Positions 3,881 through 32,613 of a stretch of DNA of 64,000 nucleotides are shown here, in pieces (positions within the stretch are counted from its first letter, which is position 1; every line of letters begins with the position of its first letter). The notes beneath the pieces were generated by a model that saw nothing but the letters and a program-made list of their open reading frames with translations, did not search any database and was not told the DNA's origin. Position numbers and translations under genes: made by a program. This DNA comes from an uncultured Veillonellaceae bacterium. Lineage in GTDB: Bacteria; Bacillota; Negativicutes; JARBTT01. Location of the stretch: the NCBI GenBank assembly GCA_963805085.1, contig CAWDTA010000001.1:64001-128000 (forward strand). The letters are read 5' to 3'.

Positions 3881-3903
3881 TTGCCTTTACGGCAATCACT
3901 TTT
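3873..3903 (+). terminator. Intrinsic terminator after meaB
   Basis: aaaagtgattgcc-tttac-ggcaatcactttt perfect stem. Confidence 0.7.
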
Positions 3904-3993
3904 GGAGTTTTTAATATCATGAATCTTTAAGAAAATGATTTAGTGAAAAATTGAAATAAACAGCAATAATTTTTATGAAAGTATGGTAAATCT

Positions 3994-4938: not shown

Positions 4939-4990
4939 ATAATTTTAAATTGATAAAAGTAAAACTTATATTTTGAGGAGGCTTTTATTT

Positions 4991-6949: not shown

Positions 6950-7044
6950 CTTTTAGACAAGGGGATTATTATGCTTGGGGTGACTATTATCTATCCTAGG
7001 CATGGGGATATAGAGAAGTTTTTAATTGAAAGAGGATTTGTTTT

Positions 7045-16955: not shown

Positions 16956-17435
16956 TCATTTTAGAATAAGGCGGGTTTGTTTACTTCTGTCCACTTTTGT
17001 AGGGTAGATATAACCAATCAAATGAAATTGATTGACAAGTGTGTCAAAATCAATAGAAGATTTTACAAAAGTACCATCTTTATTGGGTATTTCATAAACG
17101 ATATGGTCTGCAGTAACTTCACAGACTATGCCGACTGATACTTCCTGATTGACATTTTTCCATAAAATAATTGCTCCTGCCTGAGCGTCTCTAGGAGCTG
17201 TCTTTTCTATCCATTCAAATTGAGCAGCATTAGAAAACCAGTCCTCAGCATCGCCATTCCAATTCATTCCCGGGACAGGCGCTGTTTTATCAAATTCTTG
17301 TGCAATATAGCCAAGAGTTTGGCTTGGAAGATGCTTGTACCATGGGCTGGCGTCAGGATTACAGTCGCAAGCTAATACGGTGACAGGTATCAATAATGTT
17401 AAAAATAGTAAATAATAAAAACTGATCTTTTTCAA
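16956..17435 (-). CDS. Secreted CHAP-like protein lacking catalytic Cys/His
   Basis: Signal peptide, W.GDA.DW...A, AGAIILW; TTG start with GGAGGTG RBS. Confidence 0.7.
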   Translation of the reverse strand: MKKISFYYLLFLTLLIPVTVLACDCNPDASPWYKHLPSQTLGYIAQEFDKTAPVPGMNWNGDAEDWFSNAAQFEWIEKTAPRDAQAGAIILWKNVNQEVSVGIVCEVTADHIVYEIPNKDGTFVKSSIDFDTLVNQFHLIGYIYPTKVDRSKQTRLILK

Positions 17436-17487
17436 AAATTCGTCACCTCCATTTAGTCAATAATTTTAATCATCGAGAATCGGTGTA

Positions 17488-18084
17488 TTATAATAAAGAG
17501 TCGATTAGCTGGGAGAAACCATCCAATGAAGCATCATTCGTCAGATGAATTCCATTGATGAAAAAAGCTGGAGTGTTGTGAAACCCTAGATTATTTTCTT
17601 CATCAATATTGTTTTTGATGTTTTGTTCGATTGTGGGATCGGCCAGATCACGATTCAATTGATCCTTCTCTGCTTGCGATAAATTGAGTTTGTCCACTAA
17701 ATACTGCAGTCCGCTATTGCCATTTTTAAAAACTGGTTGTTCAGCCATGGCGAAATCATAGAATTTCCAGGCTTTCTCTTCATTTTGCCTAGAAAGAGCT
17801 TCAAAAACTTGTGCAGCAGACATCGCAAATGGGTGAGTGGCATGAGGATAGTGCTTTAATTTTAACTGGACTTTGCCATCATATTTATCTAATACTTGAT
17901 CGACCAGTTTTTTTGCTTGGGCACAATCGGGACATTGAAAATCGACGTATTCGACAATTGTAATAGGTGCCAATGGGGTGCCACGAGTGGCCTGTGCCGA
18001 TACGGTGGACAAATTCGTACCATAATAAGTCATGATCATGAAGATCAGCATGACTTTTGCAATTTTGTAGACAAATTTTCGCAT
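17488..18084 (-). CDS. DsbA/BdbD-like thioredoxin-fold protein
   Basis: EYVDFQCPDC, TPAFFING; start MRKF after AAGGAG. Confidence 0.88.
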   Translation of the reverse strand: MRKFVYKIAKVMLIFMIMTYYGTNLSTVSAQATRGTPLAPITIVEYVDFQCPDCAQAKKLVDQVLDKYDGKVQLKLKHYPHATHPFAMSAAQVFEALSRQNEEKAWKFYDFAMAEQPVFKNGNSGLQYLVDKLNLSQAEKDQLNRDLADPTIEQNIKNNIDEENNLGFHNTPAFFINGIHLTNDASLDGFSQLIDSLL

Positions 18085-18313
18085 TGTTTTTCTCCTTACT
18101 GTATTGAAAATCAAATAGTGTTTATTTGCTGTTAAAGCTAGTATAATACTGACGTTTTGCCGGTACATGTTCCTCGATTGGTTTCAGTATGTAAAGCTAG
18201 TAACATTATAAAAGGAGTCATACTCATTTAAAAGAGCATTCCTCTCGTAAAATTTGTAATTAGTAATATTCTTATTTACTAATTATACTTAATTTGTACT
18301 AAAAAGCAAATTC

Positions 18314-18643: not shown

Positions 18644-19279
18644 TTAGCTTGGCAACTGGTGGAATGCCAATACTATTAAAAAGATACCTGATAATGCAGT
18701 AGTATATTTACCTAATTGCTCAGAGGCATATTTTTGTCCCCAATAGTACCCCATGCCGATTGTAAGGAAACTGATAATAGCTACAAAAGTCGCTATTAGT
18801 AAAGGGGGAAGACCAGTGGTACCAGCATCGAAGCCACCAGCTATTGCGTTGATTGAGAGGGCAACTCCAAGCAAGAAAGCTTCCCAAGGGCAGATGTCTT
18901 TGGAATCATCAATATCAACTTTTTCAGGATTGTTTAGTATTTCGGCAGGTCCGATATAGAGTCGTGTACCAAACAGTTGTAAATCCATTATGGATTGTTT
19001 CATTTTTATAGCGGCTATAACAGGCTGAACAAAAACCCATAGTCCAACGGAGAAAAGCAAAGTAGCACCGATAATACTAGCAATATTGGAGGATAAGTAT
19101 AGGCTTATGGTTTTACCAATTTGCGCGGATAGCCATGTAGTAATGAAAGAGATTACGGCTATGATCGTATTTGCCGTATGAGAAATTTTAATTTTTTGCA
19201 TTCCATATGCGATACCGACACCTAGATTATCAAGGTTTGCAGCAATCGCAATAAAAATCGCTAAAGCAATAATTTGCAT
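18644..19279 (-). CDS. ytaF: Sporulation membrane protein YtaF (MntP family), copy 1
   Basis: NLDNLGVGIAYG..KI, PEKVDIDDS..I..WEA.LLG.ALSINA; start after GGGAGG, 211 aa. Confidence 0.85.
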   Translation of the reverse strand: MQIIALAIFIAIAANLDNLGVGIAYGMQKIKISHTANTIIAVISFITTWLSAQIGKTISLYLSSNIASIIGATLLFSVGLWVFVQPVIAAIKMKQSIMDLQLFGTRLYIGPAEILNNPEKVDIDDSKDICPWEAFLLGVALSINAIAGGFDAGTTGLPPLLIATFVAIISFLTIGMGYYWGQKYASEQLGKYTTALSGIFLIVLAFHQLPS

Positions 19280-19312
19280 CAATATTTTATCCTCCCTTTT
19301 AATTTTACAAAC

Positions 19313-19339
19313 TATAGTATGGTTTTTTAGAAGTAAGGT
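19313..19339 (-). promoter_or_regulatory. Sigma-K/E-like promoter of ytaF copy 1
   Basis: AC-N16-CATACTATA. Confidence 0.5.
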
Positions 19340-19508
19340 TACGCAAATTTTGACCAAAGTTTATATTGTAGTTTCTTCCAACCAATATAAATTGAAAAAA
19401 TATATAATTTAAAGTTAACATAAAATTAACATGTACTTAACTTTTCTTTTAAAATACTGGTGTATACTAAAAACAAGGAAAAAATAATGTACAGGAGATA
19501 GAAATGAT

Positions 19509-20282
19509 ATGGCGATTTTAGCAGAACCATTTATTCGCCCATTTTTACAGAGTACCGAAATTGTTGAGACGAAAACTGTATCTAAACAAATTCATGAATT
19601 TGTGAATGATAATCAAGAAGCTGTTCAAGAAGAGTTGCTTGCTGCTCAAATAGAAACTTGCAAAATGAAAGTCAGTCGACTTGTAGAAAAACATATCAGT
19701 GGTTGTAATCTCAATTCTCAAGTATATACTGCACTTTTACTTTCCGAAAAATGCGATTACAATGGCTTAATCAATTCGATGATTACGAATATCAATATAG
19801 ATGGTTTATCAAAGGCAGTAAACAAATTGGTGTTTATGGAAATGGAAAATTATTTTGATGTTTCTATTTCAATGCAGGAACAATTTGTGATTTCTACACA
19901 GAAACTTCTTCCGCCTGTATACGTCAGTCAAGTGTTACAGGAATATGTAAATACCTTACGGGTTACCAAAGTTATGGGGCGAGCAGTAAATAAAGTTTGT
20001 CACAAAGGTCTGGCGAAAATGAATCTGCCAGAGGTTGCAAAAAAATTGACCGATAAAATTGAGCTTGGCTCAGTCTTGATGGGCATTTTTGACTGTCATC
20101 CAGAAAAGCAGAAGAAAAAATCGTATCAACAGATGAACTCGTGCATTAGTGGAATAATTAAAAATTTTAAATTTCAAATAAAAATCCAGCTTGATGAAGA
20201 GATCGTGCAAAGGTTTTATCAGCTTTATGATGAACTAGAAGAAGAAATGGATGAGACGTTAGAAACAAGATTATATGTATAA
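19509..20282 (+). CDS. Hypothetical helical protein (257 aa)
   Basis: Long ORF, RBS AGGAG, terminator downstream; no family recognised. Confidence 0.75.
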   Translation: MAILAEPFIRPFLQSTEIVETKTVSKQIHEFVNDNQEAVQEELLAAQIETCKMKVSRLVEKHISGCNLNSQVYTALLLSEKCDYNGLINSMITNINIDGLSKAVNKLVFMEMENYFDVSISMQEQFVISTQKLLPPVYVSQVLQEYVNTLRVTKVMGRAVNKVCHKGLAKMNLPEVAKKLTDKIELGSVLMGIFDCHPEKQKKKSYQQMNSCISGIIKNFKFQIKIQLDEEIVQRFYQLYDELEEEMDETLETRLYV

Positions 20283-20425: not shown

Positions 20426-21088
20426 ATGCCAAATATTGAATCAAAGGCAGGACAAAAAGAAGAACAGCAAAACTCATCAAGAAACCAGAATGAACAGGAA
20501 AACTTTTCAAGAAATCAGAATGAAGAGCGTAGCCGCGGTCAGTGTATGAGGGAACGAATCTCAAAAACGGTCAATCGAGAATCAGCTGAAGGATTAGACC
20601 AAATTTTTGAGGCTAAGTTGGCCGCTGTTCATACTTATGAAAACAAATTAACATCGGTAACTGATCCGTATGCTCGAAAAGTCCTTCAGGATATGATCAA
20701 TCAAGAACGCAGAGAATTAATGAATCTTACGGAGCTTGCCGATATTGTTGATCAAAGCCCAGATATGGGGCGATTTACCCGTACGCGTCGCCAAATGGGA
20801 CATCAGCTTAAAATGAAAACAGGACATGATACGACGTTTTGGCTTGGAGCAGCTGCATTGACGGTACTCTTGATGCCTGGTTTGAGAGAACAACTTCGGC
20901 CCCTGACAGTTAAGACTACGCAGGGGATCATGAGCTTATCTGAACAGATACAGGGCTTGTTTAGCGGTGTCCGCGAAGATTTAGAGGATATAGTCAGTCA
21001 AGCCCAATTTGAGAAATTCAAGGACTCAATTGATGGTGCAATTGAAGAAACAATACCAGATCCAAATGGTGGGCCAATACATGAATAA
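20426..21088 (+). CDS. Ferritin/rubrerythrin-like helical hairpin fused to a DUF5132-like membrane segment
   Basis: E..AAV..Y.....TDP.AR.VLQ.M..QE; FWLGAAALTVLLMP..R..LRP..VK...G......REDLEDIVSQA. Confidence 0.6.
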   Translation: MPNIESKAGQKEEQQNSSRNQNEQENFSRNQNEERSRGQCMRERISKTVNRESAEGLDQIFEAKLAAVHTYENKLTSVTDPYARKVLQDMINQERRELMNLTELADIVDQSPDMGRFTRTRRQMGHQLKMKTGHDTTFWLGAAALTVLLMPGLREQLRPLTVKTTQGIMSLSEQIQGLFSGVREDLEDIVSQAQFEKFKDSIDGAIEETIPDPNGGPIHE

Positions 21089-21101: not shown

Positions 21102-21335
21102 ATGGAAGATATAAGAATCTTGCAGGAAAAGGTTTCGACGATCAAGCAGGAATTAAGAAATGCTGTAGACTTAAGCCTTGAAATACGAGCACAGTCATCC
21201 GAGTCAAAAGAAGAGGTGATTAAAATTTGGGAAATTTTATTGAAAGATTTATTTGGCTATATTAAGCAGCGTAGTAAGGAGGCAAAAGACAATTTGCTTT
21301 CTGGTGTTTCATGGGCACGCTTAAAGTTATTTTAA
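21102..21335 (+). CDS. Hypothetical 77-aa helical protein
   Basis: RBS AAAGGAG before ATG 21102; lies between the ferritin-like gene and the ATPase. Confidence 0.7.
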   Translation: MEDIRILQEKVSTIKQELRNAVDLSLEIRAQSSESKEEVIKIWEILLKDLFGYIKQRSKEAKDNLLSGVSWARLKLF

Positions 21336-21424
21336 ATAAACAGCAAGGAAGAGTCTCCTTGCTATGCTCTTTTTAGTTACCGTCTAAAGTTGAATTAACG
21401 GTTTTGGTAAAAGGGGGATAAAGG

Positions 21425-24400
21425 TTGGAAACAGTGGATGCTACAGGAAAATATAGACTCATACCAGGTCGTTTGCGAATTGAAGTGGATGGTTTGCGCA
21501 GAAATTCTATATTGGCAAAGCGACTAAAAGATCAGCTTAGTCGCGTAAAAGGAATCAGTGAAGTTAGAGCCAATCCACTCACTGGGCGCATTTTGATACT
21601 TTTTGATTATAAAGTTATCGATTTTCCTCAGATAAAGAATGAAATAAATACAGTGGTAAATCAGTATAAAAAAGTTAAACAATTTTACGCTGAAAAAGTG
21701 CTTGTAAATCAAATTGCGGCAACCATTGCTGCCGTTCCAGCTGCGCAGGAAAATTCCAATTCGGGTTTGTATGCGCTTGCCACAGGCGGTGTATTAGCGG
21801 CTATTATTGCAAAACGAATGGTAGTTGGCAAATCACCGCTAGCATCATCACAGCACATTTTTAATTTAACGGCGCTAACAACGATTGTTTCTGGGTATCC
21901 TTTATTTCGCAGTGGCTTACAGGGATTGATACGAGATAAGCGCATCAATCATGATCTGATTATATTTATGGCCTCATTAGTATTGCTAGCGATGAGGGAA
22001 AGCTTTGTCGGTTTGTCCATCTTATGGGTTGTGCATTTAACCAATCTTTTTCAATTTATGGCACAGTCTAAATCCCGTGCCCGAATCCATACAATCATGC
22101 AGCAAAAACAGCATGATTTGTTTAAGCTAGAAAATGACCGTAGGCAGGAAATAAAGGCATATGATATCAAAGAGGGTGATATCCTTGTTCTTCATTCTGG
22201 AGAACGAGTACCTGTTGAAGGCAAAGTCATTGCAGGAAAGGCAGGAATAAATTGTGCTGCTGTAACTGGTGATAGCTTACCTTATTTGGCTTCAGAAGGA
22301 GATATCATAAGTGCTGGTTCGCTAATAGAAACAGGTTCACTACAGATCAGGGTGTTAGATGTAAGCATGACTCCTTTTGTACCACAGGCATATGATGCTA
22401 GTAAGTATGAAGAAAATTGGCATAGTAGTGATCGTTATGTGAATAAAATCATGTGGTGGAGTTTGACGGCAGCAGGGCTCATATTCTTCTTTACTCGGGA
22501 TGTCTCTCGAAGTATTGCTGTACTGCTAGCTGGGTCGCCAGCAGCTATTTCCTTAGCGAGAAATTCAGCGGTGGGGGCAGCTATCGCGCAAGCGACTAGG
22601 CAAAATATCTATGTAAAAGAACCGCGGGCTTTAGAAGCTGCCGGAGAAATAGATACAGTAATTTTAGATAAAACAGGGACCTTGACTGAAGCAGTGCCAC
22701 ATATTGTGGATATCATTGCCTGTGATATGATGAGTGAAAATGATGTTTTGACATTGGCGGCAGCAGCTGGGCAGAAGGAATATCATCCATATAGCAGGGT
22801 ATTGGTGATGGAGACGCAACGAAGAGGTATTAAATTGCCGGAGGCAGTCAGCCAGACGTCTCATGGTATGGGAGTATGCGCAAAAATTGCCGATAAAGAT
22901 GTTGTCGTAGGTAATCGGGCGCTTATGCTACGCGAGCAAATTCAGCTAAGCAGAGTGAGGGCTCAAGCGGCTAGAATGGAGCTCAATGGTAATACCGTCA
23001 CTTATGTCGCTGTAAATAAAAGACTTTGTGGACTAATTGCCGTAAAGGATAAAGTGAAAGAAGCCAGTTTTGAAAGCGTGGCTGCCTTACGATGTATAGG
23101 AATTGAAAATATTGCTTTATTATCAGGAGATTCATCTCCCGCTGCTGATCGTGTTGCAGCAACCCTTGATATTCCATGTAAATATGGGGGGCTGTTGCCA
23201 AATCAAAAAGCAAAAATGATACAAGAGCTAAAAGAGCAGAAATATAAAGTGATTATGGTTGGCGATGGGATTAATGATTCACAAGCATTGGCGATTAGTG
23301 ATGTTGGCATTGCCATGGGAAAAATAGGCGTAAGCCCTACCATCAGTCAGGCTGATATTGTGATAGGGGATGACGATCCACGTAAAATAGCCATGACAGT
23401 AGTTTTAGGCAAACAGCTTAATGAAGTCGTCAAACAGAACACTGCTTTGGCAGCTGGGTTAAATATTATTGGAATTGCTTTAGCCGCAGCACGACTTATT
23501 TCACCTTTGACAGCAGGATTACTGGTTAATATAAGCACACTTGGAGTGGTCTTAAATTCAGGGCGCCTCTTTAAGTCTAAAAAATCTAAAAAAGATATTG
23601 TGGCTTCAAGTAGGTTGGATTTACAGTGCTTTGCCGCACGACAAATTACACCTGAGACTACCAGCCAAAGCGATATAAAAGCGAATTTAGAGACAAAAAA
23701 ATGGCACGGAATGAGCCAAGAAGCGGTTTGTGAAGCATTGGATACTTCGGAAAAATTCGGGATCAGCGAGCAGGAAGCTGGCAGGCGGCGTTTAATCTAT
23801 GGTCACAACAAGTTAACTGCGCGGGAAAAACCTTCTTTTTGGCGACAATTACTAGATCAATTCAAAGATTTTATGGTACAGGTTTTAATGGGGGCTGCAA
23901 CCTTAAGTTTCGTGCTAGGAAAACGAAGGGATGCTATGCTGACCATAGGTATTGTTACCGCTAATGCTTTTCTTGGGGTTGCTCAAGAACGAAAGGCGGG
24001 AAAATCTTTAGAAGTTTTACAGGAATTGGCTGCACCGCAGGCTAGAGTCATTCGTGCAGGACGGACAACAAAAATCAATGCTGCAGCCTTGGTTCCTGGT
24101 GATGTGATTGTATTGGAAGCTGGTGACCGAGTGCCTGCTGATGCTAGATTATTAACAGGCGTTCATTTTGAAGTTGAGGAAGCTTCCTTAACAGGGGAGA
24201 CTATGCCTGTTAAAAAACAGTGGTTAAAAAGTGATGAAATTGAAGTTTCACTAGGAGATCGGAAAAATATGGCATTTATGGGAACAACAGTCACCAAAGG
24301 GCGGGCTATGGCAGTGGTAGTTGCTACGGGAATGACCACTGAAATGGGCAAGATTGCATCCTTGATTGCTCAGCACAAGGAAGAAGCAACGCCACTGCAA

Positions 24401-26449
24401 CGGCGTCTTGAAGAATTAGGGAAATACCTAGTGTATGGTTGTTTAGGCGTTTCTGGACTCGTATTTTGTGTAGGAATGCTGCGTGGTGAGCAATTGATTA
24501 ATATGCTGCAGACAGCGGCTAGTTTGGCTGTAGCAGCGATACCGGAGGGGCTGTCTGCTATTGTTCTTATTGCCTTGGCAATGGGAGTCCAAAGAATGAG
24601 TAAACGTAATATTATTGTTAGCAAACTTTCTTCTATTGAGACACTAGGTTCGGCTACGGTTATTTGTTCGGATAAGACTGGGACACTTACACAAAATCAA
24701 ATGACTGTACGTGAAGTGTTTTCGCTAGGTGGACAATGGGGAGTTTCTGGAGAAGGGTACAATCCCAAAGGGCAGTTTAGTGAGAACAATCAGAATGTGG
24801 AGCCAGATAAGTTGCTAAAAAAGATTGCAAGCATTGCAGCTTTATGCAATAATGCAAAACTTATGAAAGCGCAGCAGAATGTTAATGGTAAAGTAGTGCC
24901 ACTAAAACCATGTAGGGAAGAAAAATGGACGATTGATGGCGATCCTACTGAGGGAGCTCTCCTCACATTAGCTGCTAAAGCTGGGCTTAATCTCGAACAG
25001 TTTACGCAAACGAATTGTCGTGAGATTGAATATCCATTTGAGTCGGAACGGTGCATGATGTCCGTTGTGTGTACCGATGAAAATCAAGAGTCTTCACTGT
25101 ATTCAAAGGGCGCTCCAGATAAAATTATCAGTCTTTGCACGCATTATACAGATGGGGAAAATATTTATCCGCTTGATGATGTATTGCGCCAAAAAGTTGA
25201 ACAGGCTAACGATGCTATGGCCTTAAAAGCGCTAAGAGTGCTGGCTTGTGCCTATCGTCCGATGGATGTTAGTGAGAATAAAGAAGATGAAAGTACAGTG
25301 GAAGGAAAATTAGTTTTTTGTGGACTGGTGGGAATGATTGATCCGCCTCGCCCGGAGGTTCCAACAGCTATTGAAAAGTGTCGGCGGGCTGGCGTGAAAG
25401 TGGTTATGATTACGGGAGATCATCCTAGTACGGCTAAGGCTATCGGTAAGGAATTGGGATTGATTGCTGATAACAGCGGAATCGTAACTGGTGGGCAAAT
25501 AGATAAAATGAGCGATGAAGAACTTATTCAGGCAGTAGAAGCCGTTCGTATATTTGCTAGGACATCACCTCAACAGAAACTGCGTATCGTAAAAGCATTT
25601 AAAAGCAGAGGTGAAGTGGTTGCAATGACTGGAGATGGCGTTAACGATGCGCCTGCCGTTAAGGCCGCAGATATTGGCATCGCTATGGGGGTAACTGGAA
25701 CAGATGTTACAAAACAAGCTGCCTGTATGACTTTAGCCGATGACAATTTCGCAACAATAGTGAGGGCGATGGAAGAGGGACGGTCAATCTATGCTAATAT
25801 ACGCAAAGCAATCCGTTATCTGCTCGCCACCAATATTGGCGAAGTCGTTTTAATGTTTTTGGCGGCAGTGATAGGGATGCCGTTGCCACTGATACCAATA
25901 CAACTCTTATGGATTAATCTTGTTGGGGATGGTCTTCCAGCAATTGCGCTAGTCAATGACCCTCCTCCGGCTGATGTAATGGAACAAGCTCCACAGTCAA
26001 GTAGTGATAGTGTTTTTGCGAATGGCCTAGGAAAGAAAGTTCTCAGCAGAGGCTTGATTATCGGTATGGGGAGTCTTTTCTTATATGCTTGGAAGCTGCG
26101 TGCTAGTGGTAGCATAATGCTTGCGCGTACTTTAACGCTGGCACAACTAGCGATCAGTCAGTTTATTCACATTTTTGACTGCCGCATAGAAAAAGGCATG
26201 GGTGGAATAAAACAATTTGCAAGTAATAAGTGGCTGATAGCAGCTGTTGCTCTATCGATGTCAATGGTTGCTATAGTTATTCAATATCCAGTATTACAGC
26301 CTGTGTTTGGTACTGTAGCTTTGACCGCTTGGGAGTGGCTAATGGCGCTCATTGTGGCGATGATAACCTCGGCAGTAGATTTTCTGGTCGTAAGAAAAAT
26401 TGAACAAAAAAATTTGATACAGCAACCAGTAAAGGTGTTAACTAATTAA
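21425..26449 (+). CDS. Tandem P-type ATPase: HMA_2 + P1B-like half fused to P2A (Ca/Mn-type) half
   Basis: PGRLRI...V.ANPLTGRILI; DKTGTLT at residues ~415 and ~1083; two GDGxND; IPEGL, TGET, NLVGDGLPA. Confidence 0.9.
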   Translation: METVDATGKYRLIPGRLRIEVDGLRRNSILAKRLKDQLSRVKGISEVRANPLTGRILILFDYKVIDFPQIKNEINTVVNQYKKVKQFYAEKVLVNQIAATIAAVPAAQENSNSGLYALATGGVLAAIIAKRMVVGKSPLASSQHIFNLTALTTIVSGYPLFRSGLQGLIRDKRINHDLIIFMASLVLLAMRESFVGLSILWVVHLTNLFQFMAQSKSRARIHTIMQQKQHDLFKLENDRRQEIKAYDIKEGDILVLHSGERVPVEGKVIAGKAGINCAAVTGDSLPYLASEGDIISAGSLIETGSLQIRVLDVSMTPFVPQAYDASKYEENWHSSDRYVNKIMWWSLTAAGLIFFFTRDVSRSIAVLLAGSPAAISLARNSAVGAAIAQATRQNIYVKEPRALEAAGEIDTVILDKTGTLTEAVPHIVDIIACDMMSENDVLTLAAAAGQKEYHPYSRVLVMETQRRGIKLPEAVSQTSHGMGVCAKIADKDVVVGNRALMLREQIQLSRVRAQAARMELNGNTVTYVAVNKRLCGLIAVKDKVKEASFESVAALRCIGIENIALLSGDSSPAADRVAATLDIPCKYGGLLPNQKAKMIQELKEQKYKVIMVGDGINDSQALAISDVGIAMGKIGVSPTISQADIVIGDDDPRKIAMTVVLGKQLNEVVKQNTALAAGLNIIGIALAAARLISPLTAGLLVNISTLGVVLNSGRLFKSKKSKKDIVASSRLDLQCFAARQITPETTSQSDIKANLETKKWHGMSQEAVCEALDTSEKFGISEQEAGRRRLIYGHNKLTAREKPSFWRQLLDQFKDFMVQVLMGAATLSFVLGKRRDAMLTIGIVTANAFLGVAQERKAGKSLEVLQELAAPQARVIRAGRTTKINAAALVPGDVIVLEAGDRVPADARLLTGVHFEVEEASLTGETMPVKKQWLKSDEIEVSLGDRKNMAFMGTTVTKGRAMAVVVATGMTTEMGKIASLIAQHKEEATPLQRRLEELGKYLVYGCLGVSGLVFCVGMLRGEQLINMLQTAASLAVAAIPEGLSAIVLIALAMGVQRMSKRNIIVSKLSSIETLGSATVICSDKTGTLTQNQMTVREVFSLGGQWGVSGEGYNPKGQFSENNQNVEPDKLLKKIASIAALCNNAKLMKAQQNVNGKVVPLKPCREEKWTIDGDPTEGALLTLAAKAGLNLEQFTQTNCREIEYPFESERCMMSVVCTDENQESSLYSKGAPDKIISLCTHYTDGENIYPLDDVLRQKVEQANDAMALKALRVLACAYRPMDVSENKEDESTVEGKLVFCGLVGMIDPPRPEVPTAIEKCRRAGVKVVMITGDHPSTAKAIGKELGLIADNSGIVTGGQIDKMSDEELIQAVEAVRIFARTSPQQKLRIVKAFKSRGEVVAMTGDGVNDAPAVKAADIGIAMGVTGTDVTKQAACMTLADDNFATIVRAMEEGRSIYANIRKAIRYLLATNIGEVVLMFLAAVIGMPLPLIPIQLLWINLVGDGLPAIALVNDPPPADVMEQAPQSSSDSVFANGLGKKVLSRGLIIGMGSLFLYAWKLRASGSIMLARTLTLAQLAISQFIHIFDCRIEKGMGGIKQFASNKWLIAAVALSMSMVAIVIQYPVLQPVFGTVALTAWEWLMALIVAMITSAVDFLVVRKIEQKNLIQQPVKVLTN

Positions 26450-26737: not shown

Positions 26738-27310
26738 TTATTTGACTGGTTTTTTATGGGCGGCGCGGCGACGGGGCAAATCATCAGTTTCCAACTTATC
26801 ATCTATCAACTGGAGTGATGATTCTTCTAAATGGTCACTTGTTTGGGATTCGTCAACAGCATCGACATAGTTAGTAGCATCATTGCTATCATACGTTTCA
26901 ACAGCAAGACCAGCTTTAGCTTCATCCACAACATCCTTGAAGTTGTTACGCAATGATTTGGCTTTGTCTGATAAGGCTAAGGCACCAGCAGCGGTTGCTA
27001 CAGCTACACGACGACCTTGTTTTTTTGCCGTATGCTTTAAACAATCCATTGTTCCGGCTATTGCTTCCTGTGGCGTATTGTCAATATCTCTAGCTTCGGA
27101 AACGATGTCTGCAGTACTTTCTTTTATTTGGACTCCTAGTTCTTTTACACTATCTGCAAGTGCTAAGGCACCTCGGGTAGTTAAGACAGCTGCACTGCGG
27201 AGACCTCGTCTAACTGGTGGGAAAGCGACGGCGATTGCGGCTCCAGTTGCGATAAGAGCAACTGGTGAGCTACTTTCAATAACTCTTGAGCCTAAACGCA
27301 TAATATTCAT
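26738..27310 (-). CDS. DUF5132-like protein with internally duplicated motif and acidic tail
   Basis: TM (ALIATGAAIAVAFPP) then R.AAV....GALAL.D..K.L...K...DIV.EA twice. Confidence 0.7.
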   Translation of the reverse strand: MNIMRLGSRVIESSSPVALIATGAAIAVAFPPVRRGLRSAAVLTTRGALALADSVKELGVQIKESTADIVSEARDIDNTPQEAIAGTMDCLKHTAKKQGRRVAVATAAGALALSDKAKSLRNNFKDVVDEAKAGLAVETYDSNDATNYVDAVDESQTSDHLEESSLQLIDDKLETDDLPRRRAAHKKPVK

Positions 27311-27561: not shown

Positions 27562-28197
27562 CTACCCTAGTAGCTGATGGAGCCCGATTAGCATTAATAA
27601 CGTACCAGACACTAGAGTAGCGTATTTGCCTAGCTGCTCAGCGGCATATTTTTCACCAACATAATTACCTGTATAAATAGTGATAAGGCTGAATATACCT
27701 ATAAGAGCAGCCTCTAATAATGGGGATATGCCGATTGCTCCTGCATCAAATCCACCGGCTAAGGCATTTATGGAAAGCGCAGTGCCTAGGATAATTGCTT
27801 CCCAGTGTCCAATATTCTGTGAATTATCCATATCAGCTCTTTCTGGATAATTTAAAATTTCTGTAGGTCCAATATAGATTCTCCCCCCTAATAGCTGTAA
27901 ATCAATAATTGGCTGATTGGTCTTTATTGCGGTAATGATTGGTTGTGTAAAGATCCAGGCTCCTACCCCGAAGAGCAAGATAGCTCCGATAATACTAGTT
28001 ACTTCTGGACTCAAATATACGATGATTGCTTTACCAATTTCACCAGATAACCATGTGGCAACTAAAGATATTGCGGATATAATGAAATTAGAAATATGAG
28101 AAATTCTGATTTTTCGAATCCCATAGGCAATACCTACCCCGAGATTATCCAAATTGGCTGCTATAGCTATTAAGATACTGATGAAAAAACTATTCAT
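27562..28197 (-). CDS. ytaF: Sporulation membrane protein YtaF (MntP family), copy 2
   Basis: 211 aa, colinear paralogue of 18644..19279. Confidence 0.85.
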   Translation of the reverse strand: MNSFFISILIAIAANLDNLGVGIAYGIRKIRISHISNFIISAISLVATWLSGEIGKAIIVYLSPEVTSIIGAILLFGVGAWIFTQPIITAIKTNQPIIDLQLLGGRIYIGPTEILNYPERADMDNSQNIGHWEAIILGTALSINALAGGFDAGAIGISPLLEAALIGIFSLITIYTGNYVGEKYAAEQLGKYATLVSGTLLMLIGLHQLLG

Positions 28198-28966: not shown

Positions 28967-30244
28967 TTAAGATTGCCCGGTAAAAGTTAGGTACAATAAA
29001 ACAGCATTCAAAGCTATTATGATACTAACGATGCTCCAGCCTACAATATTTGTCAGGCGACTATTTTTAAAAGAGCCCATAATACTTTTTTTGTTTGTAA
29101 TAATCATCAGCGGGATAATCGTTGATGGTAGAGCAAAGCTTAAAATAACTTGGCTATAAACCAACGCTTCCATTGGGTTAATACCGGACATTAAAATTCC
29201 TAGAGCAGGTAGCATGGTCACGAGACGACGAATGCTGGCTCGGATATCAAAGCCTAAAAATCCTTTTAAGATGACTTCCCCAGCCATAGTGCCCACTGTT
29301 GAAGAAGATAGTCCAGAGGCCAAAAGTGCTATACCAAATGCTCCTGCTGCCATGTTTCCCATTAATGGTTGCAGCGTTAGATAAGCTTGCTCAATACCAT
29401 CTACATTTAACCCATTTCCATTGAAAGCGGCTGCGGAAACAATTACCATAGCGGCATTGACAACGAAGGCCATGTTCATTGCGATAAAAACTTCCATCTT
29501 AGCCATTTTGAGATGGTGTTTACAATCGCTTAGGCAGTCGGTACGTCGTGGTTGAACCAGTTCGGAATGTAAGTAAATAACATGTGGCATAACGGTTGCG
29601 CCCAGCATACCTACGGCTATTATTATACTGTCTTGGGATAGAATAGGAACAGCAGTATGATAGGCAACTTGACTCCAATCTGGAGTGGATTCAAACATTT
29701 CCCATACATAGGCAATACTGATTACGGCGACCATACCGGTGATGATTCGTTCAACGACTCGCTGACCATATTTTTGCAGATGGCATATTACATAGGTAAT
29801 CACACCTGTTAAGGCAGCCGACCACATTAAAGGAATTCCGAACAATAGATTAAATCCTAACACTCCCCCAAGAAATTCCGCAAGGTCTGTAGCCATAGCT
29901 GCCACTGTAGCTATAGACCAATATCCCCAATTAACCGGTCGGGAAAACATCTGTCCGCAATGCGCAGGTAAGTTCATCCCTGTGGCTATTCCAAGTTTTG
30001 CTGATAAAGTTTGCACAAAAATTGCCATAATATTACTCCACAGTATAACCCATAACAAATTATAAGCAAATTGAGAACCACCACTGATGTTAGTACCAAA
30101 ATTGCCGGGATCCATATATGCAACACTGACGACGAATGCGGGACCCATGTACTTCAATAGGCCTTTTGCTTTTTGCTTGATTTCTGCTCCGTCTATAGAT
30201 GGTAAGTCTATAGGAACACGAGACGCTAATTGTTGGTCTTTCAT
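28967..30244 (-). CDS. mntH: Nramp Mn2+/H+ symporter MntH
   Basis: AYMDPGN, GATVMPHVIYLHS, GTMAG. Confidence 0.95.
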   Translation of the reverse strand: MKDQQLASRVPIDLPSIDGAEIKQKAKGLLKYMGPAFVVSVAYMDPGNFGTNISGGSQFAYNLLWVILWSNIMAIFVQTLSAKLGIATGMNLPAHCGQMFSRPVNWGYWSIATVAAMATDLAEFLGGVLGFNLLFGIPLMWSAALTGVITYVICHLQKYGQRVVERIITGMVAVISIAYVWEMFESTPDWSQVAYHTAVPILSQDSIIIAVGMLGATVMPHVIYLHSELVQPRRTDCLSDCKHHLKMAKMEVFIAMNMAFVVNAAMVIVSAAAFNGNGLNVDGIEQAYLTLQPLMGNMAAGAFGIALLASGLSSSTVGTMAGEVILKGFLGFDIRASIRRLVTMLPALGILMSGINPMEALVYSQVILSFALPSTIIPLMIITNKKSIMGSFKNSRLTNIVGWSIVSIIIALNAVLLYLTFTGQS

Positions 30245-30657: not shown

Positions 30658-30674
30658 AATAACGAACTAAATAA

Positions 30675-30843
30675 TTCTTCGTTAGGTGAGGCTCCTGCAT
30701 TGAACATAGGCCACTGCCCGGAAACGTCGAGAGACGCCAATGGGTAGAACAGGTATGACCGGATTAAGGTTTTACATAAGGTGGCTGAGTAACTGATTGT
30801 TAATTCTACGTCATGCAGTGTCAAAGCTCGTACGAGTGGGGAA
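30675..30843 (+). ncRNA. M-box (ykoK) Mg2+ riboswitch
   Basis: TTCGTTAGGTGAGGCTCCT...CTGCCCGGAAACGTCGAGAGACGCCAATGGGTAGAACAGG...AAAGCTCG.ACGAG; upstream of Mg transport genes. Confidence 0.93.
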
Positions 30844-30866
30844 GGTAATATAGTATTTGTATGCTT

Positions 30867-31329: not shown

Positions 31330-32613
31330 ATGAATCAAGTTAAAGTGTTGGGAGAGTTTTACTTTAGCAAATTATTAGGTACACCTGTCTATGATAAAAG
31401 TGGCCGGAATATCGGCAAAATAAGAGATATGGCGGTGCGATGGGAAGGTACTTATCCAAAAATTGTGGGGATTAAACATATAAAGAAAACACATCAATTG
31501 ATTCCCATTGACCAGATTGCGTGTTGTAGTTATAAGGAAGTAAGACTAAAAGAAAATTTTGAAATAGAGAAAACTGCAATTCTTCATGAAAATGATATTT
31601 ACATTAGTAGATGGCTTTTAGATAAGCAAATTATTGATTTAAAAGGCTCTAAACTTGTGCGGGTAAATGATATTACATTGTCTTGGGTAGTGCAGGAAAA
31701 CCTTGAAAGTATGGTATTGGTTGCTGTTGATATTGGAATAAGAGGTCTTTTTCGTCGTCTAGGATTGGAGTTTTTAGTCAAGGGCTATCAAAATAACTTG
31801 TTGGGTTTACAATATATTAAACCATTAGAAAGCTGGAATTCCTTTCTTCAACTGAATCGCGAGAAGCAACAGGTTAGTGAATTGCATCCTGCGGATATTG
31901 CGGATTTACTAGAGGAAATGGATTACAAAACACGTGCTGGTTTTATTGAGAAGCTAGATGACCAACAAGCTGTGGATGCTTTGATTGAAATGGACTTGGA
32001 TTCACAAGTTGAAATTATTGAACAAATGGATGAACAGCGGGCATCTGATTTATTAGAAGAAATGCCACCAGATGAGGCGGCAGATATTCTAGTGGAAATG
32101 ACTGCAGAAAAATCAGAGGGATTACTCAACCTGATGGAAGTGGATGATGCCGAGGAAGTGCGCGAACTTATGCAGTATGAAGAAGGTACTGCCGGGGCAT
32201 TGATGACAACAGAATTTATTGCCTTTTCTGCAGATCTTACGCCTGAAGAGGTTATCAATCAGCTCAGAGAGCTGGCACCAGAAGCAGAAACTATTTATTA
32301 TTTATATGTGGTGGATCAGGAAGAACATTTGCAGGGGGTTCTGTCTTTACGTGAACTCATTGTGGCATCGCCAAAGGCAACATTGCGTCAATTGATGCAT
32401 ACGAAACTGAGAACAGTGCATCCGGAAGAAGATCATCAACGTGTTGCAGAGGTTATCAATAAATATGGATTGCTGGCCGTACCTGTAGTTGATGGGCAAG
32501 GGATTATTTTGGGGATTGTCACGGTTGATGATATTGTTGACATTTTAATACCGGAACGTGGCAAAATGGATACATATTCTTGGTTCGCCCTTAGTAAGTG
32601 GGGTGGTAGATGA
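31330..32613 (+). CDS. Soluble MgtE-like protein (PRC barrel + MgtE_N + CBS pair, no TM domain)
   Basis: LHPADIADLLEE, Y.EGTAGALMTTE, GIVTVDDI; ends after the CBS pair. Confidence 0.88.
   Translation: MNQVKVLGEFYFSKLLGTPVYDKSGRNIGKIRDMAVRWEGTYPKIVGIKHIKKTHQLIPIDQIACCSYKEVRLKENFEIEKTAILHENDIYISRWLLDKQIIDLKGSKLVRVNDITLSWVVQENLESMVLVAVDIGIRGLFRRLGLEFLVKGYQNNLLGLQYIKPLESWNSFLQLNREKQQVSELHPADIADLLEEMDYKTRAGFIEKLDDQQAVDALIEMDLDSQVEIIEQMDEQRASDLLEEMPPDEAADILVEMTAEKSEGLLNLMEVDDAEEVRELMQYEEGTAGALMTTEFIAFSADLTPEEVINQLRELAPEAETIYYLYVVDQEEHLQGVLSLRELIVASPKATLRQLMHTKLRTVHPEEDHQRVAEVINKYGLLAVPVVDGQGIILGIVTVDDIVDILIPERGKMDTYSWFALSKWGGR

Follow-up and report, generated by a model that had tools for sequence, protein, structure and literature searches.

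Why a pump should bear a second pump at its N-terminus is a question raised by a gene in a stretch of 64,000 nucleotides from an uncultured Veillonellaceae bacterium (hereafter, the window). The architecture of its product is already known: it is that of FUPA24 (TC 3.A.3.24) and of the mycobacterial proteins CtpH (Rv0425c) and CtpI (Rv0107c), which are uncharacterised. FUPA24 is described as an N-terminal type I ATPase fused to a C-terminal type II ATPase (PMC3573892), and the passage on CtpH and CtpI in a 2023 review of P-type ATPases sets them apart as outliers that have yet to be characterised and 'might constitute a unique family' (PMC10654040).

A single reading frame encodes two P-type ATPase cores

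The gene is a single ORF without an internal stop, and AAGGGGGA precedes its TTG start codon. In the encoded protein, an HMA_2 domain is followed by a P1B-like ATPase (N-half), a linker of about 45 aa and a complete PMR1/LMCA1-like P2A ATPase (C-half).

21425..26449, + strand: tandem P-type ATPase gene, 1674 aa
21458..21658, + strand: HMA_2 domain, residues 12-78 (Pfam PF19991, 45 bits; cut-off, 30)
21953..23569, + strand: N-half, P1B-like ATPase core, residues 177-715 (from NCBIfam, motif positions and CopA alignment)
23570..23701, + strand: linker, residues 716-759, motif LDLQCFAA (D conserved in 60, L in 66, Q in 65 and F in 65 of 93 homologues)
23702..26446, + strand: C-half, complete P2A ATPase, residues 760-1674 (from Pfam, NCBIfam and LMCA1 alignment)

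The motif DKTGT occurs at residues 415 and 1083, with the phosphorylation Asp codons at 22667-22669 and 24671-24673, respectively, and the hinge motifs are GDGIND at 613 and GDGVND at 1403. Besides HMA_2, Pfam assigned E1-E2_ATPase and Hydrolase stretches (two of each) and the domains Cation_ATPase_N (760-828) and Cation_ATPase_C (1486-1654). NCBIfam placed TIGR01525 (a P1B model) at 177-715 and TIGR01522 (PMR1-type) at 759-1652. A preliminary description of this DNA had proposed one uninterrupted frame with a P1B and a P2A core joined by a linker of about 45 aa, phosphorylation motifs near residues 415 and 1083 and two GDGxND hinges. The ORF and both domain libraries agree with this layout, and the motifs lie at these residues.

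The same single frame was found in 22 of 300 other Negativicutes genomes, and full-length matches to the tandem protein, 1600-1780 aa long and of independent origin, are numerous in the database. Moreover, contigs of 10,026 and 3,683 nt from two independent soil metagenome runs cover positions 22802-24400 unbroken at about 95% identity. Both bridge the junction (23550-23700) without an indel; apart from a +1/-1 pair at 22857/22863, a long way off, they contain none. Given the other genomes and the two bridging contigs, the fusion is not an assembly artefact. The explanation that a mis-assembly or sequencing error joined two adjacent genes into one long ORF is refuted by the genomes, the full-length database proteins and the contigs, and the conserved motif in the linker also speaks against it. 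We found no support for it, and noted only the TTG start and a database cluster representative that starts three residues later; its probability is practically nil.

The C-half has the features of a complete P2A pump

Motif counts were taken over 93 long homologues of the tandem protein. The catalytic motifs of the C-half (TGET at 923, DKTGT at 1083, TGDH at 1330 and GDGVND at 1403) are conserved in 92-93 of these homologues, and TGE, IPEGL, DKTGT and GDGxND are each present in all 93. The IPEGL, TNIGE and NLVGDG motifs noted previously were located at 1039-1043, 1469 and 1498, and together with Cation_ATPase_N and Cation_ATPase_C they give the M4, M5 and M6 ligands and the ten-helix layout of a P2A pump. 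As judged from its motifs, the C-half is a canonical, always-conserved pump. No second C-half match was found in the host's own genome.

Among solved structures, those of Listeria LMCA1 (E = 1.4e-176) and human SPCA1 (E = 2.6e-170) are nearest to the C-half, which aligns with both over its full length and has all catalytic motifs, but differs from them in being fused to a second ATPase. Compared with LMCA1, it keeps the M5 Glu (TNIGE; Ala in LMCA1) and has Gln (Q1579) opposite the M8 Arg, a position that we take to be that of SERCA E908. Since the ligands E1041, N1470, E1473, N1498 and D1502 are present, with Gly at SERCA T799 and Gln at E908, the C-half would export Ca2+, and possibly Mn2+, via one site. 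The identity of the substrate is not assured, because the score of TIGR01522, the PMR1-type equivalog and the best model, lies just under its cut-off (777.9 vs. 798.3 bits).

The N-half keeps its phosphorylation and nucleotide-binding residues

The best TIGR01525 stretch runs from residue 177 to residue 715 and takes in positions 2-560 of the 560 in the profile; the score of 607.6 bits (cut-off, 346.25) is a whole-protein sum of four stretches and includes the C-half. The N-half keeps the residues for phosphorylation and nucleotide binding, namely D415-T419, H454-P455, G496, S567-G-D569, P592..K595 and G613-D618, which bears out the HP, GxG, SGD and PxxK elements read previously. By sequence, it has every residue needed for ATP binding and aspartyl-phosphate formation.

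Alignment to A. fulgidus CopA revealed three substitutions in the N-half: TGDS (281-284) for TGE(P), SPA within GSPAA (370-374) for CPC, and N.ST within LVNIST (700-705) for M..SS. These are the changes that had been described as TGDS for TGES, GSPAA for a Cys-containing transmembrane motif and VNIST for HNxST. The N-half of the window thus has neither the TGES dephosphorylation motif in its A domain nor a Cys-containing CPx/xPC motif in TM4. The glutamate of TGES normally hydrolyses the aspartyl-phosphate.

The preliminary description had treated conservation of the N-half aspartate as a test of its reading. DKT was kept in 59 of the 93 homologues and missing in 34. Among the 59, the residues that had not been used in defining this group were almost always present (TGD Asp in 58, K595 in 59, GDGxND in 57-59, and HP in 53 and 57). 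In the other 34, TGD, K595 and GDGxND are lost together, and the TGES segment is deleted in 24. The TGES positions of the DKT-positive homologues vary (T in 16, G in 48, S in 6, and E in 16, D in 26 or another residue in 17 at the Glu position), so that an acidic residue stands at the Glu position in 42 of 59. In TM4, the first position is Cys in 47, Ser in 8 and Ala in 4, Pro is present in all 59, and the third position is Cys in one; the resulting motif is CP[AVM] in 47 and CPC in one. The TM6 'H' position is occupied by L (30), Q (18), A (7), V (2), T (1) or H (1), and TM5 QN and TM6 N.ST are nearly invariant. The earlier claim that the metal ligands of the N-half look lost therefore holds for the clade of the query (SPA, VN) and does not extend to other homologues, since the 47 with the first TM4 Cys carry CPA or CPV.

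Chan et al. reportedly concluded, in 2010, that only the C-half of such fusions retains function. FUPA24 proteins are likewise fusions of a P1B-like (type I) ATPase to the N-terminus of a P2 (type II) ATPase, of 1500-1700 aa and thus roughly double the usual length, as is the window protein. However, functional motifs confined to the C-terminal half, a mark of FUPA24, were not found here, the N-half of the window keeping DKTGT, TGD, K595 and GDGxND. Homology to CtpH and CtpI was judged via P0286 (JGI 'cation-transporting ATPase I', 1608 aa, Pfam HMA_2), a protein named by JGI, in place of the M. tuberculosis proteins. BLASTP alignments to P0286 were collinear over both halves (residues 599-1651, 31% identity, E = 1e-111; residues 3 to about 420, 23% identity, E = 2e-17). 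The N-half motifs of P0286 are gone, GDGIND being replaced by SDHAEA, whereas the window protein keeps those named above and HP. This finding is in line with the earlier remark that CtpH and CtpI are of similar length, with a more degenerate N-half, as are the relevant passages of PMC13460109, which call the N-terminal part of both proteins degenerate, and of PMC3573892.

The N-half falls within a separate clade, made up of P1B-like ATPases that have HMA_2 and PGRxR and lack the CPC and HN transmembrane ligands. The nearest relatives of this clade are CtpC-like (CPC and HN) and ferrosome FezB-like (DYSC and HN) pumps, and the N-half's 150 best relatives include FezB-like sequences. A preprint describes an R-rich motif for FezB and CtpC relatives and gives the FezB motifs as D[Y/F]SCA in TM4 and HNxxT in TM6 (bioRxiv 10.1101/2020.01.10.902569); neither of these P1B-6/FezB motifs is present in the N-half, which has GSPAA and VNIST. 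Among 40 representatives of the clade, 26 are stand-alone proteins, some of them possibly gene-call fragments.

HMA_2, the linker and the P2A pump persist when the N-half decays

The HMA_2 domain carries the R-rich motif IPGRLRIE at 13-20, which includes RxR, and has no CxxC. The residues of PGRxR were found in 86 (P), 86 (G), 85 (R) and 86 (R) of the 93 homologues, seven of which are N-truncated, that is, in 85-86 of the 86 that have an N-terminus; the motif is invariant even where the N-half is degenerate. In a tree of the C-half, degenerate forms and forms with HMA_2 only branch from within intact ones at no fewer than seven places. Several short forms consist of HMA_2, the DLQxFA linker and the P2A ATPase only, and the LDLQCFAA motif was also found in HMA_2-only forms. 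In addition, one locus is split, with two separate pump genes in the cluster that each have their own HMA_2, and one genome (L037) has an N-half-only gene in an equivalent cluster without a C-half.

This natural series of intact, degenerate, HMA_2-only, split and N-half-only forms indicates, at the level of sequence, that HMA_2, the linker and the P2A pump are the indispensable parts. Catalysis by the N-half is dispensable in many lineages, since 34 of 93 homologues lack DKT and the short forms keep only the three parts named. The N-half is more than an appendage of the C-half, given the stand-alone representatives of its clade and the N-half-only and split loci. Its median identity to the query is 42%, compared with 63% for the C-half, indicating that the N-half evolves faster.

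The pump is encoded in a conserved cluster with PacL-like proteins

The tandem gene is accompanied by four conserved partner genes. They were counted over 20 loci, among them Pelotomaculum loci, which belong to a different class and have a degenerate N-half.

19509..20282, + strand: unk257, 257-aa all-helical protein, first gene of the cluster (homologues in 17 of 20 loci)
20426..21088, + strand: unk220, 220 aa, putative EncFtn-like hairpin and PacL-like module (17 of 20)
21102..21335, + strand: unk80, 77-aa (about 80) helical protein (17 of 20)
21342-21373: hairpin and T-run, 3' of unk80
26738..27310, - strand: unk190, 190-aa PacL-like protein (18 of 20)

The cluster was absent at one of the 20 loci (L024), and unk220 and unk80 were absent at two (L022 and L028).

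In unk190, G23xxxA lies within a hydrophobic N-terminal segment; the protein further has the module PPVRRGLR...DIVSEAR, which is conserved, and an acidic tail. G23 is invariant in 'ATGAAIAVAF', and the neighbouring P-type ATPase, hydrophobic helix and acidic helical part match the context and layout of PacL proteins; the hydrophobic segment, from P16 to P31, is short for a transmembrane helix, and no His-rich C-terminal metal motif was found. Against Pfam DUF1490, the window protein scored 15.8 bits (E = 0.015), under the gathering cut-off of 28.4, and 11 of 17 family members matched (E up to 0.1, best 8.9e-8).

The unk220 protein consists of a disordered N-terminus, a putative EncFtn-like, ferritin-like helical hairpin at about 51-109 and a PacL-like module at about 140-195. 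Comparison of the unk220 and unk190 families by hhalign (probability 97.3, E = 1.7e-11) indicated a common PacL-like module. The cluster encodes two PacL-like (DUF1490-like) proteins, one of which, unk220, is fused to the putative ferritin-like hairpin. The hairpin was modelled with pLDDT >90, and its top Foldseek matches, EncC, EncB and EncFtn, are weak (E 0.1-0.3); the match to EncB_fam (E = 8.2e-5, 22.6 bits) lies under the curated cut-off of 90. Within the family, 8 of 14 members match DUF5132 and 5 of 14 match DUF2383. The di-iron ligands (Glu ... ExxH) were not found in unk220, the His of ExxH being Leu, and in the profile alignment to bacterioferritin 9viw_A, 'DEnhH' corresponds to 'DERreL' in the family.

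No Pfam or NCBIfam family matched unk257 or unk80. For the AF2 model of unk257 (pLDDT 86.8, pTM 0.74), the best structural matches were stalks of the dynamin family (for the MxB stalk, Z was 9.4 and the rmsd 4.8 over 167 aa) and BAR/ClyA-like bundles, a predicted likeness that falls short of what would be decisive between helical bundles. The ATG of unk80 at 21102 is preceded by the ribosome-binding site AAAGGAG, and the family alignment has a mean column identity of 64%.

PacL proteins bind the N-terminal MBDs of the pumps CtpC, CtpG and CtpV, which they also cluster (PMC13043812, PMC13460109). The window system shares with these Mycobacterium 'effluxosomes' (PacL1-3, DUF1490) a small-xxx-small hydrophobic segment, an acidic helical region, an ATPase neighbour and an ATPase N-terminal domain of the R-rich/HMA_2 group, but its pump is a tandem P1B-like/P2A fusion and not a single metal exporter. 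DUF1490 is reported, in the passages of PMC13043812 and PMC9374683 that deal with it, only from Actinobacteria (98 species), and DUF6110 PacL-like proteins accompany P1B-6 pumps in Firmicutes (PMC9374683). The two supplementary data files of the latter contain no entry for Sporomusa, Pelosinus, Propionispora, Pelotomaculum or Desulfotomaculum.

Likewise, an R-rich P1B ATPase, small hydrophobic GxxxG/GxxxA proteins and a putative ferritin-like protein bearing a hydrophobic C-terminal motif are shared with ferrosome fez clusters (FezB P1B-6, FezA/FezC, FezH). In contrast, the hairpin of the window lacks ExxH, and genes for Mn/Mg transporters, not iron genes, lie next to the cluster.

A candidate regulatory repeat lies upstream of the cluster

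The cluster is flanked by a repeat and by transporter genes.

18644..19357, - strand: YtaF-type (MntP-family) membrane protein, divergent from the cluster (TIGR02840, 166.3 vs. 149.6; Pfam Mntp)
19415..19441, + strand: direct repeat in three copies, TTAACA-N5-TTAACA-N5-TTAACT, some 70 nt upstream of unk257, the first gene
27562..28197, - strand: second YtaF-type (MntP-family) membrane protein (TIGR02840, 158.9 bits vs. 149.6)
28967..30244, - strand: MntH-type NRAMP Mn2+ importer (NF001923, 521.6 bits vs. 430)

Within the 64 kb of the window, the pattern TTHAC-N6-TTHAC-N6-TTHAC is matched only by this repeat, against an expectation of 0.02; a match turned up in 2 of 100 shuffles. The homologous first genes of L015-L018, L020 and L027 have a conserved copy of the repeat upstream, and its exact pattern occurs at only 6 of the 15 Negativicutes loci that possess this gene. 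Read against what we take to be the PhoP-box consensus, it is a candidate site for an OmpR/PhoB-family (PhoP-like) regulator. In Pelotomaculum, pst/phoU neighbour the cluster, and the Pho-box-like repeat together with these neighbours suggests, as a lead only, phosphate-responsive expression. The divergent YtaF-type gene adjoins the cluster in 6 of 16 Negativicutes loci. The MntH neighbour is not conserved with the cluster, a partial NRAMP match being present in 1 of 16 loci (L015).

Discussion

It is somewhat probable that the C-half is a working Ca2+/Mn2+ exporter and that the N-half, binding ATP, serves a platform of PacL-type scaffolds as a docking or regulatory module. The N-half would not cycle as an ordinary metal pump; it would bind ATP and act in membrane docking or in regulation, possibly gated by phosphorylation, and HMA_2 and the membrane part of the N-half would tie the Ca2+/Mn2+ pump to the PacL-like scaffold proteins encoded in the cluster. 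This role is read entirely from conservation patterns. Slow turnover of the N-half may be conceivable, since 42 of 59 homologues have D or E at the TGES position. The preliminary description had likewise proposed a nucleotide-binding regulatory or targeting module for an active C-half. The active C-half is supported, being canonical in 93 of 93 homologues, and the targeting idea gains substance from the conserved partner genes, which had been missed; the N-half as a mere appendage does not stand.

An active transporter of an unknown substrate also fits the N-half, because DKTGT, TGD, K595 and GDGxND are strictly kept in the 59 homologues and stand-alone N-half-like genes exist, one of them inside a cluster without a C-half. 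Both halves would then transport, the N-half moving a different substrate, a second species, across the same membrane patch. This substrate could be a harder cation (Mn2+, Fe2+ or Zn2+, via Cys/Ser, Asn, Ser and Thr) or a non-metal, for example for a ferrosome-like store. The acidic residue at the TGES position, the TM4 Cys-Pro and the nearly invariant TM5 QN and TM6 N.ST agree with such a pump, and the nearest relatives of the N-half, the CtpC and FezB types, are real pumps. However, the canonical TGE is missing in most homologues, and in 17 of 59 the Glu position is not acidic; of the residues that define CtpC/FezB sites, the second Cys and the TM6 His each survive in 1 of 59, and the first TM4 Cys is Ser in the clade of the query. 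Furthermore, the partner genes stayed in place through repeated losses of N-half catalysis, and the N-half evolves faster. Two transporting halves are therefore unlikely, in our view.

The N-half could also be the decaying remnant of an old fusion that acts as nothing more than an extra membrane anchor, its motifs being retained through phylogenetic inertia. Degenerate or deleted N-halves are indeed common (34 of 93 and the short forms), and the N-terminal part of CtpH/CtpI is treated as degenerate in the passages cited above (PMC13460109). Yet catalytic residues spread over 200 positions are 97-100% conserved in the 59 homologues and are lost together in the others. Since this conservation persists at a median N-half identity of 42%, it points to selection and not inertia. 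PGRxR stays invariant even in degenerate forms and N-half-type genes persist alone, and we consider a relic highly unlikely.

The cluster as a whole might specify a phosphate-regulated platform in the membrane, or a Ca/Mn (phosphate) store bounded by lipid, of a kind not described before in anaerobic spore-forming Firmicutes, built from HMA_2 as an address tag, a membrane-shaping helical protein and a repurposed N-half clade, a speculation to which we give a low probability. Such a platform may be a cousin of ferrosomes and effluxosomes. In it, HMA_2 would recruit pumps to PacL-like scaffolds, and the helical protein, with its predicted dynamin-stalk/BAR-like fold, would shape the membrane. 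The ligand-less, phosphorylatable N-half clade may be an ATP-driven organiser or a non-metal transporter rather than a metal pump.

The locus in the window provides a version of FUPA24 with a catalytically equipped N-half from a non-pathogenic anaerobe, and the role of the second ATPase is now directly testable. The intact, degenerate, HMA_2-only, split and N-half-only forms in close relatives constitute a natural series from which the dispensability of the protein can be assessed part by part. Moreover, the conserved partner genes carry the idea of a PacL scaffold outside Actinobacteria and to pumps other than single metal exporters. If the phosphate link is true, Ca/Mn pumping would be tied to the Pho response.

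Architecture of the fused ATPase

The gene at 21425–26449 (+) was found to be a single ORF of 1674 codons, with a TTG start lying 6 bases 3′ of AAGGGGGA. All motifs named in the preliminary description were located in this frame.

Domains and motifs of the 1674-aa fused protein (residue numbers)
12–78: HMA_2 (Pfam)
177–715: TIGR01525, P1B model (NCBIfam)
281, 370 and 700: TGDS, GSPAA and LVNIST (N-half)
415 and 1083: DKTGT
613 and 1403: GDGIND and GDGVND
759–1652: TIGR01522, PMR1-type model (NCBIfam)
760–828 and 1486–1654: Cation_ATPase_N and Cation_ATPase_C (Pfam)
1039, 1469 and 1498: IPEGL, TNIGE and NLVGDG (C-half)
Two stretches each: E1-E2_ATPase and Hydrolase (Pfam)

Residue-by-residue alignment of the N-half with A. 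fulgidus CopA showed that TGE is replaced by TGD, CPC by SPA and M..SS by N.ST. Over its whole length, the C-half aligned with Listeria LMCA1 (E 1.4e-176), and human SPCA1 likewise gave a full-span match (E 2.6e-170).

Occurrence of the fusion in other genomes

An assembly artefact was ruled out by homologous single frames in other genomes and by metagenome contigs bridging the junction. Dozens of relatives matching over the full length (1600–1780 aa) were obtained in a word-indexed protein search; their sources were Pelorhabdus (79% identity), Propionispora, Sporomusa, Lucifera, Methylomusa and Dendrosporobacter, with Pelotomaculum and Desulfotomaculum at 37–40% identity. Of 300 other genomes in a sample of the class, 22 have the fusion as a single long frame. 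In addition, soil metagenome contigs from two runs (10,026 and 3,683 nt) span 22802–24400 unbroken, each bridging the junction in one piece; they differ from the window by 76 substitutions, and the only indels are a compensating +1/−1 pair at 22857/22863.

The sole match in a genome of the same genus (84% complete) was a 909-aa P2A ATPase. No second match to the C-half was found in the organism's own genome, where the other P-type ATPase matches were frames of 855 aa (P1B) and 682 aa and the pieces of a broken P1B frame. Three adjoining P1B ATPase fragments separated by TAG and TAA stops, at G000:C2:2127394–2128846 (+) of this genome, look like a broken heavy-metal pump gene.

Conservation of the two halves

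Residue counts over an alignment of the 93 listed homologues with a length of 1340 aa or more showed a canonical C-half throughout (TGE 92–93, IPEGL 93, DKTGT 93, TGDH 92–93 and GDGxND 93 of 93). The N-half occurs in two states: DKT at 415–417 is retained in 59 of the 93 homologues and absent from the other 34. Residues outside the group definition are kept in the DKT-positive group, namely the TGD Asp (58/59), K595 and G496 (59/59 each), GDGxND (57–59/59) and HP (53/59 and 57/59). The remaining 34 lose the N-half catalytic residues jointly (for example, GDG Asp in 4/34), and the TGES segment is deleted in 24 of them.

The A-domain motif of the 59 DKT-positive proteins is not TGES (T16, G48, E16/D26/other 17, S6). 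Their TM4 reads C47/S8/A4, P59 and A/V/M, with Cys at the third position in 1/59, and the TM4 Ser of the window protein is common only to its closest relatives. The TM6 position, which is His in CtpC and FezB, is occupied by L30, Q18, A7, V2, T1 and H1, followed by N58, S52 and T54. Median identity to the query was 42% for the N-half vs. 63% for the C-half, indicating that the N-half is less conserved.

The arginine motif PGRxR of HMA_2 is present in 85–86 of the 86 homologues possessing the N-terminus, and the linker motif is kept in long forms (D60, L66, Q65 and F65 of 93). Short forms of ~1040 aa, such as that of Sporomusa malonica, consist of HMA_2, linker and P2A without the P1B core, and retain the DLQxFA linker motif.

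Phylogeny of the two halves

In a C-half tree of 120 sequences (FastTree, midpoint root), degenerate N-half and short forms are nested among intact ones at at least seven places. The 920-aa stand-alone pumps form one clade in this midpoint-rooted tree; therefore, the fusion may have arisen only once.

Residues 1–745 were used as query in an exhaustive HMMER search, which gave 55,647 matches at E ≤0.001, and motifs were tabulated over the best 150 of these after alignment. The best 150 include fused proteins, stand-alone degenerate forms and stand-alone N-half-like proteins such as P0122 (749 aa, 45% identity), which has LLPGRLRIT, SGEP, GCPV and LN.ST. They also include a CtpC-like group (R-rich motif, TGES, CPC and HN), a FezB-like group (DYSC and HN) and a group in which TGR[SA] replaces TGES. 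In a tree of 140 of the best 150 (at least 600 aa), a single clade with support 1.0 unites 14/14 fused representatives with 26 stand-alone proteins that lack CPC, and it adjoins CPC+HN proteins. Therefore, the N-half is no isolated wreck but belongs to a separate clade, poor in ligands, within the HMA_2/R-rich P1B group.

Another clade, made up of R-rich P1B-like ATPases that stand alone, carries TGR[SA] for TGES, (S/A)CPCAT in TM4 and HxxH(T/S) in TM6 (P0139, P0154, P0158, P0170, P0177, P0188, P0192, P0197, P0205, P0209, P0243, P0244, P0249, P0255 and P0262). Its members carry Arg where the catalytic Glu of TGES is expected; thus, loss of this Glu extends beyond fused N-halves. The clade is possibly the 'FezH' type of the ferrosome preprint (bioRxiv 10.1101/2020.01.10.902569).

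In some Sporomusaceae loci, the fused or N-half-like gene has a stand-alone CtpC-like paralogue at a distance of a few kb: L019 1913–4204 (−), L023 5007–7244 (+), L026 15574–17802 (+) and L037 3430–5706 (−). These paralogues (742–763 aa) have HMA_2 with RIR, ACPCA and HNAST, often with an additional 70-aa PacL-like gene nearby.

Conserved partner genes

Neighbourhoods of the fused gene (±7 kb) were compared in 16 Negativicutes genomes, in which the window's neighbours recur. Profile HMMs were applied to 20 loci: the same 16, two from Pelotomaculum and two in which the gene is split.

Partner genes in the window and their recurrence (profile HMMs built from members of most of the same 20 loci)
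19509–20282 (+): unk257, 17/20 loci
20426–21088 (+): unk220, 17/20 loci
21102–21335 (+): unk80, 17/20 loci
26738–27310 (−): PacL-like protein (190 aa), 18/20 loci

At one Negativicutes locus, L024, the profile HMMs detected none of the partner genes. The two Pelotomaculum loci came from a single-protein scan with P0084, which returned no other loci. They belong to another class and have a degenerate N-half, yet carry an unk220 homologue (E 1e-25 and 3e-29) and unk80, and one of them (L035) has a PacL-like gene (E 6e-12). Neither contributed sequences to the unk220, PacL-like and unk257 profiles, and the unk80 homologue of the other (L034) is inside the unk80 alignment A7. The 190-aa protein alone matched DUF1490 (PacL) weakly (E 0.015), and 11 of 17 members of its family matched this model (best E 8.9e-8).

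The split locus L036 runs from unk257 through a stand-alone pump of the N-half type (681 aa; it carries an HMA_2 of its own, GCPI, DKTGT and GDGIND) and the PacL-like gene to unk220, unk80 and an HMA_2–P2A pump of 1041 aa. In L037, unk220 and unk80 are followed by a 740-aa N-half-like pump and then by the PacL-like gene, and the C-half is missing at that place. Therefore, the system is modular.

Two YtaF-type MntP-family proteins and MntH are also encoded near the cluster in the window, and YtaF-type genes adjoin it in 6 of the 16 loci. Just beyond the cluster, 16956–18168 (−) holds a lipoprotein-type gene of DsbA/thioredoxin-like character and encodes a small protein whose CHAP-like match is weak; no conservation of these genes with the cluster was found.

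Structure and family of the small partner proteins

Sequence comparison suggested that unk220 is a ferritin-like hairpin joined to a module homologous to the PacL-like protein. The hairpin was modelled with pLDDT >90 (residues 60–100). The protein matched EncB_fam at E 8e-5, under the curated cut-off; 5 of 14 family members matched DUF2383, and the best Foldseek matches were EncC, EncB and EncFtn (E 0.1–0.3). The module aligned with the PacL-like family with an hhalign probability of 97.3 (E 1.7e-11), and DUF5132 was matched by 8 of 14 unk220 family members. A ferroxidase role for unk220 is unsupported because ExxH is not conserved; its histidine is replaced by Leu, which makes a ferroxidase centre unlikely.

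The model of unk257 is a confident elongated helical bundle (pLDDT 86.8) with no GTPase domain. Its best structural neighbours were the stalks of dynamin, Mx, OPA1 and BDLP, and BAR domains, with VIA-align Z values to dynamin stalks of at most 9.4, below the level meaningful for helical bundles. Foldseek gave no match at E ≤0.001, and the ESM Atlas gave weak GTPase, mitofusin and DLP_helical leads (scores 0.85–0.91, low recognition). A dynamin-stalk-like fold is thus a lead from modelling. unk80 matched unnamed Bacillota clusters only.

Candidate regulatory elements

The following elements lie in or near the cluster.

19415–19441: triple direct repeat TTAACA-N5-TTAACA-N5-TTAACT
21342–21373 (+): hairpin AGCAAGGAAGAGTCTCCTTGCT followed by a T-run, between unk80 and the pump gene
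30671–30847 (+): M-box (Mg2+) riboswitch, 153.6 bits
31330–32613 (+): PRC-barrel/MgtE_N/CBS protein
32610–33878 (+): divergent NRAMP-family transporter

The repeat is the sole such site in the window (expected 0.02) and resembles the Bacillus PhoP box. The pattern also occurs 5′ of the first cluster gene in six compared loci (L015–L018, L020 and L027) and 5′ of the fused gene in L024. Moreover, genes for pstS, pstC, pstA, pstB and phoU, all above curated cut-offs, surround the cluster in the two Pelotomaculum loci: at 15204–18031 in L034 (Pelotomaculum terephthalicicum JT), and as two sets at 1604–5927 and 17883–24400 in L035, where an OmpR/PhoB-family regulator (6810–7529) lies just upstream of the pump. 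This setting is a phosphate lead separate from the repeat. The hairpin is possibly a terminator or attenuator uncoupling pump expression from the upstream genes.

A metal riboswitch for the cluster was rejected: the sole Rfam match in the window is the M-box upstream of the neighbouring MgtE_N/CBS–NRAMP pair, and Rfam gave no Mn riboswitch in the window. The transporter of this pair scored 148.5 bits against the MntH model (cut-off 430), and the pair has the appearance of an NRAMP-related transporter under Mg2+ control whose cytoplasmic sensor is a separate protein.

Relation to known systems

The tandem P1B-like/P2 ATPase is a known, uncharacterised kind. Chan et al. (2010) reportedly described FUPA24 as the union of a type I and a type II ATPase, of which only the type II part remains functional. 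In keeping with the preliminary description, CtpH and CtpI are given as FUPA24 members of double the usual length with motifs confined to the C-terminal part (PMC3573892), and their AlphaFold models point to an N-terminal P-type ATPase that is degenerate (PMC13460109); both are called uncharacterised (PMC10654040). P0286, named 'cation-transporting ATPase I' by JGI, has Pfam HMA_2 and is collinear with the window protein across both halves; its own N-half motifs are decayed, whereas the window N-half keeps DKTGT and GDGIND.

PacL (DUF1490) proteins are reported from Actinobacteria only, and Firmicutes DUF6110 'PacL-like' proteins adjoin P1B-6 pumps (PMC9374683, PMC13043812 and PMC13460109). 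The searched supplementary text of PMC9374683 has no Sporomusa, Pelosinus, Propionispora, Pelotomaculum or Desulfotomaculum entry. The literature found on tandem or fused P-type ATPase clusters was confined to CtpH/CtpI, PacL and ferrosome papers, none of which describes the present cluster; the supplementary tables of the ferrosome preprint, outside this scope, may bear on novelty. Within it, three features appear undescribed: the variant that retains its N-half motifs, the naturally occurring series from intact through degenerate and reduced to split forms, and the conserved PacL-like/ferritin-like partner cluster outside Actinobacteria.

Proposed roles of the two halves

The roles of the halves were considered from the observed architecture, conservation pattern, partner genes and modular variants. 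A dual pump, in which the N-half is also a working transporter, would be consistent with the acidic residue kept at the TGES position in 42 of the 59 DKT-positive homologues and with the persistence of stand-alone N-half-type genes. No metal-pump-like cycling would be expected of an N-half that lacks the Glu of TGES as well as the ligands in CPC and HN, and we regard a dual pump as unlikely.

The proposal of a regulatory or targeting N-half beside an active C-half pump stands in part: the C-half is canonical throughout, and N-half catalysis is lost in about a third of the homologues (34/93). The C-half would be a one-site Ca2+(/Mn2+) exporter, and the N-half would bind ATP and may be phosphorylated at D415. 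The lasting role of the N-half, common to degenerate and HMA_2-only forms, may be docking of the pump to PacL-like scaffolds.
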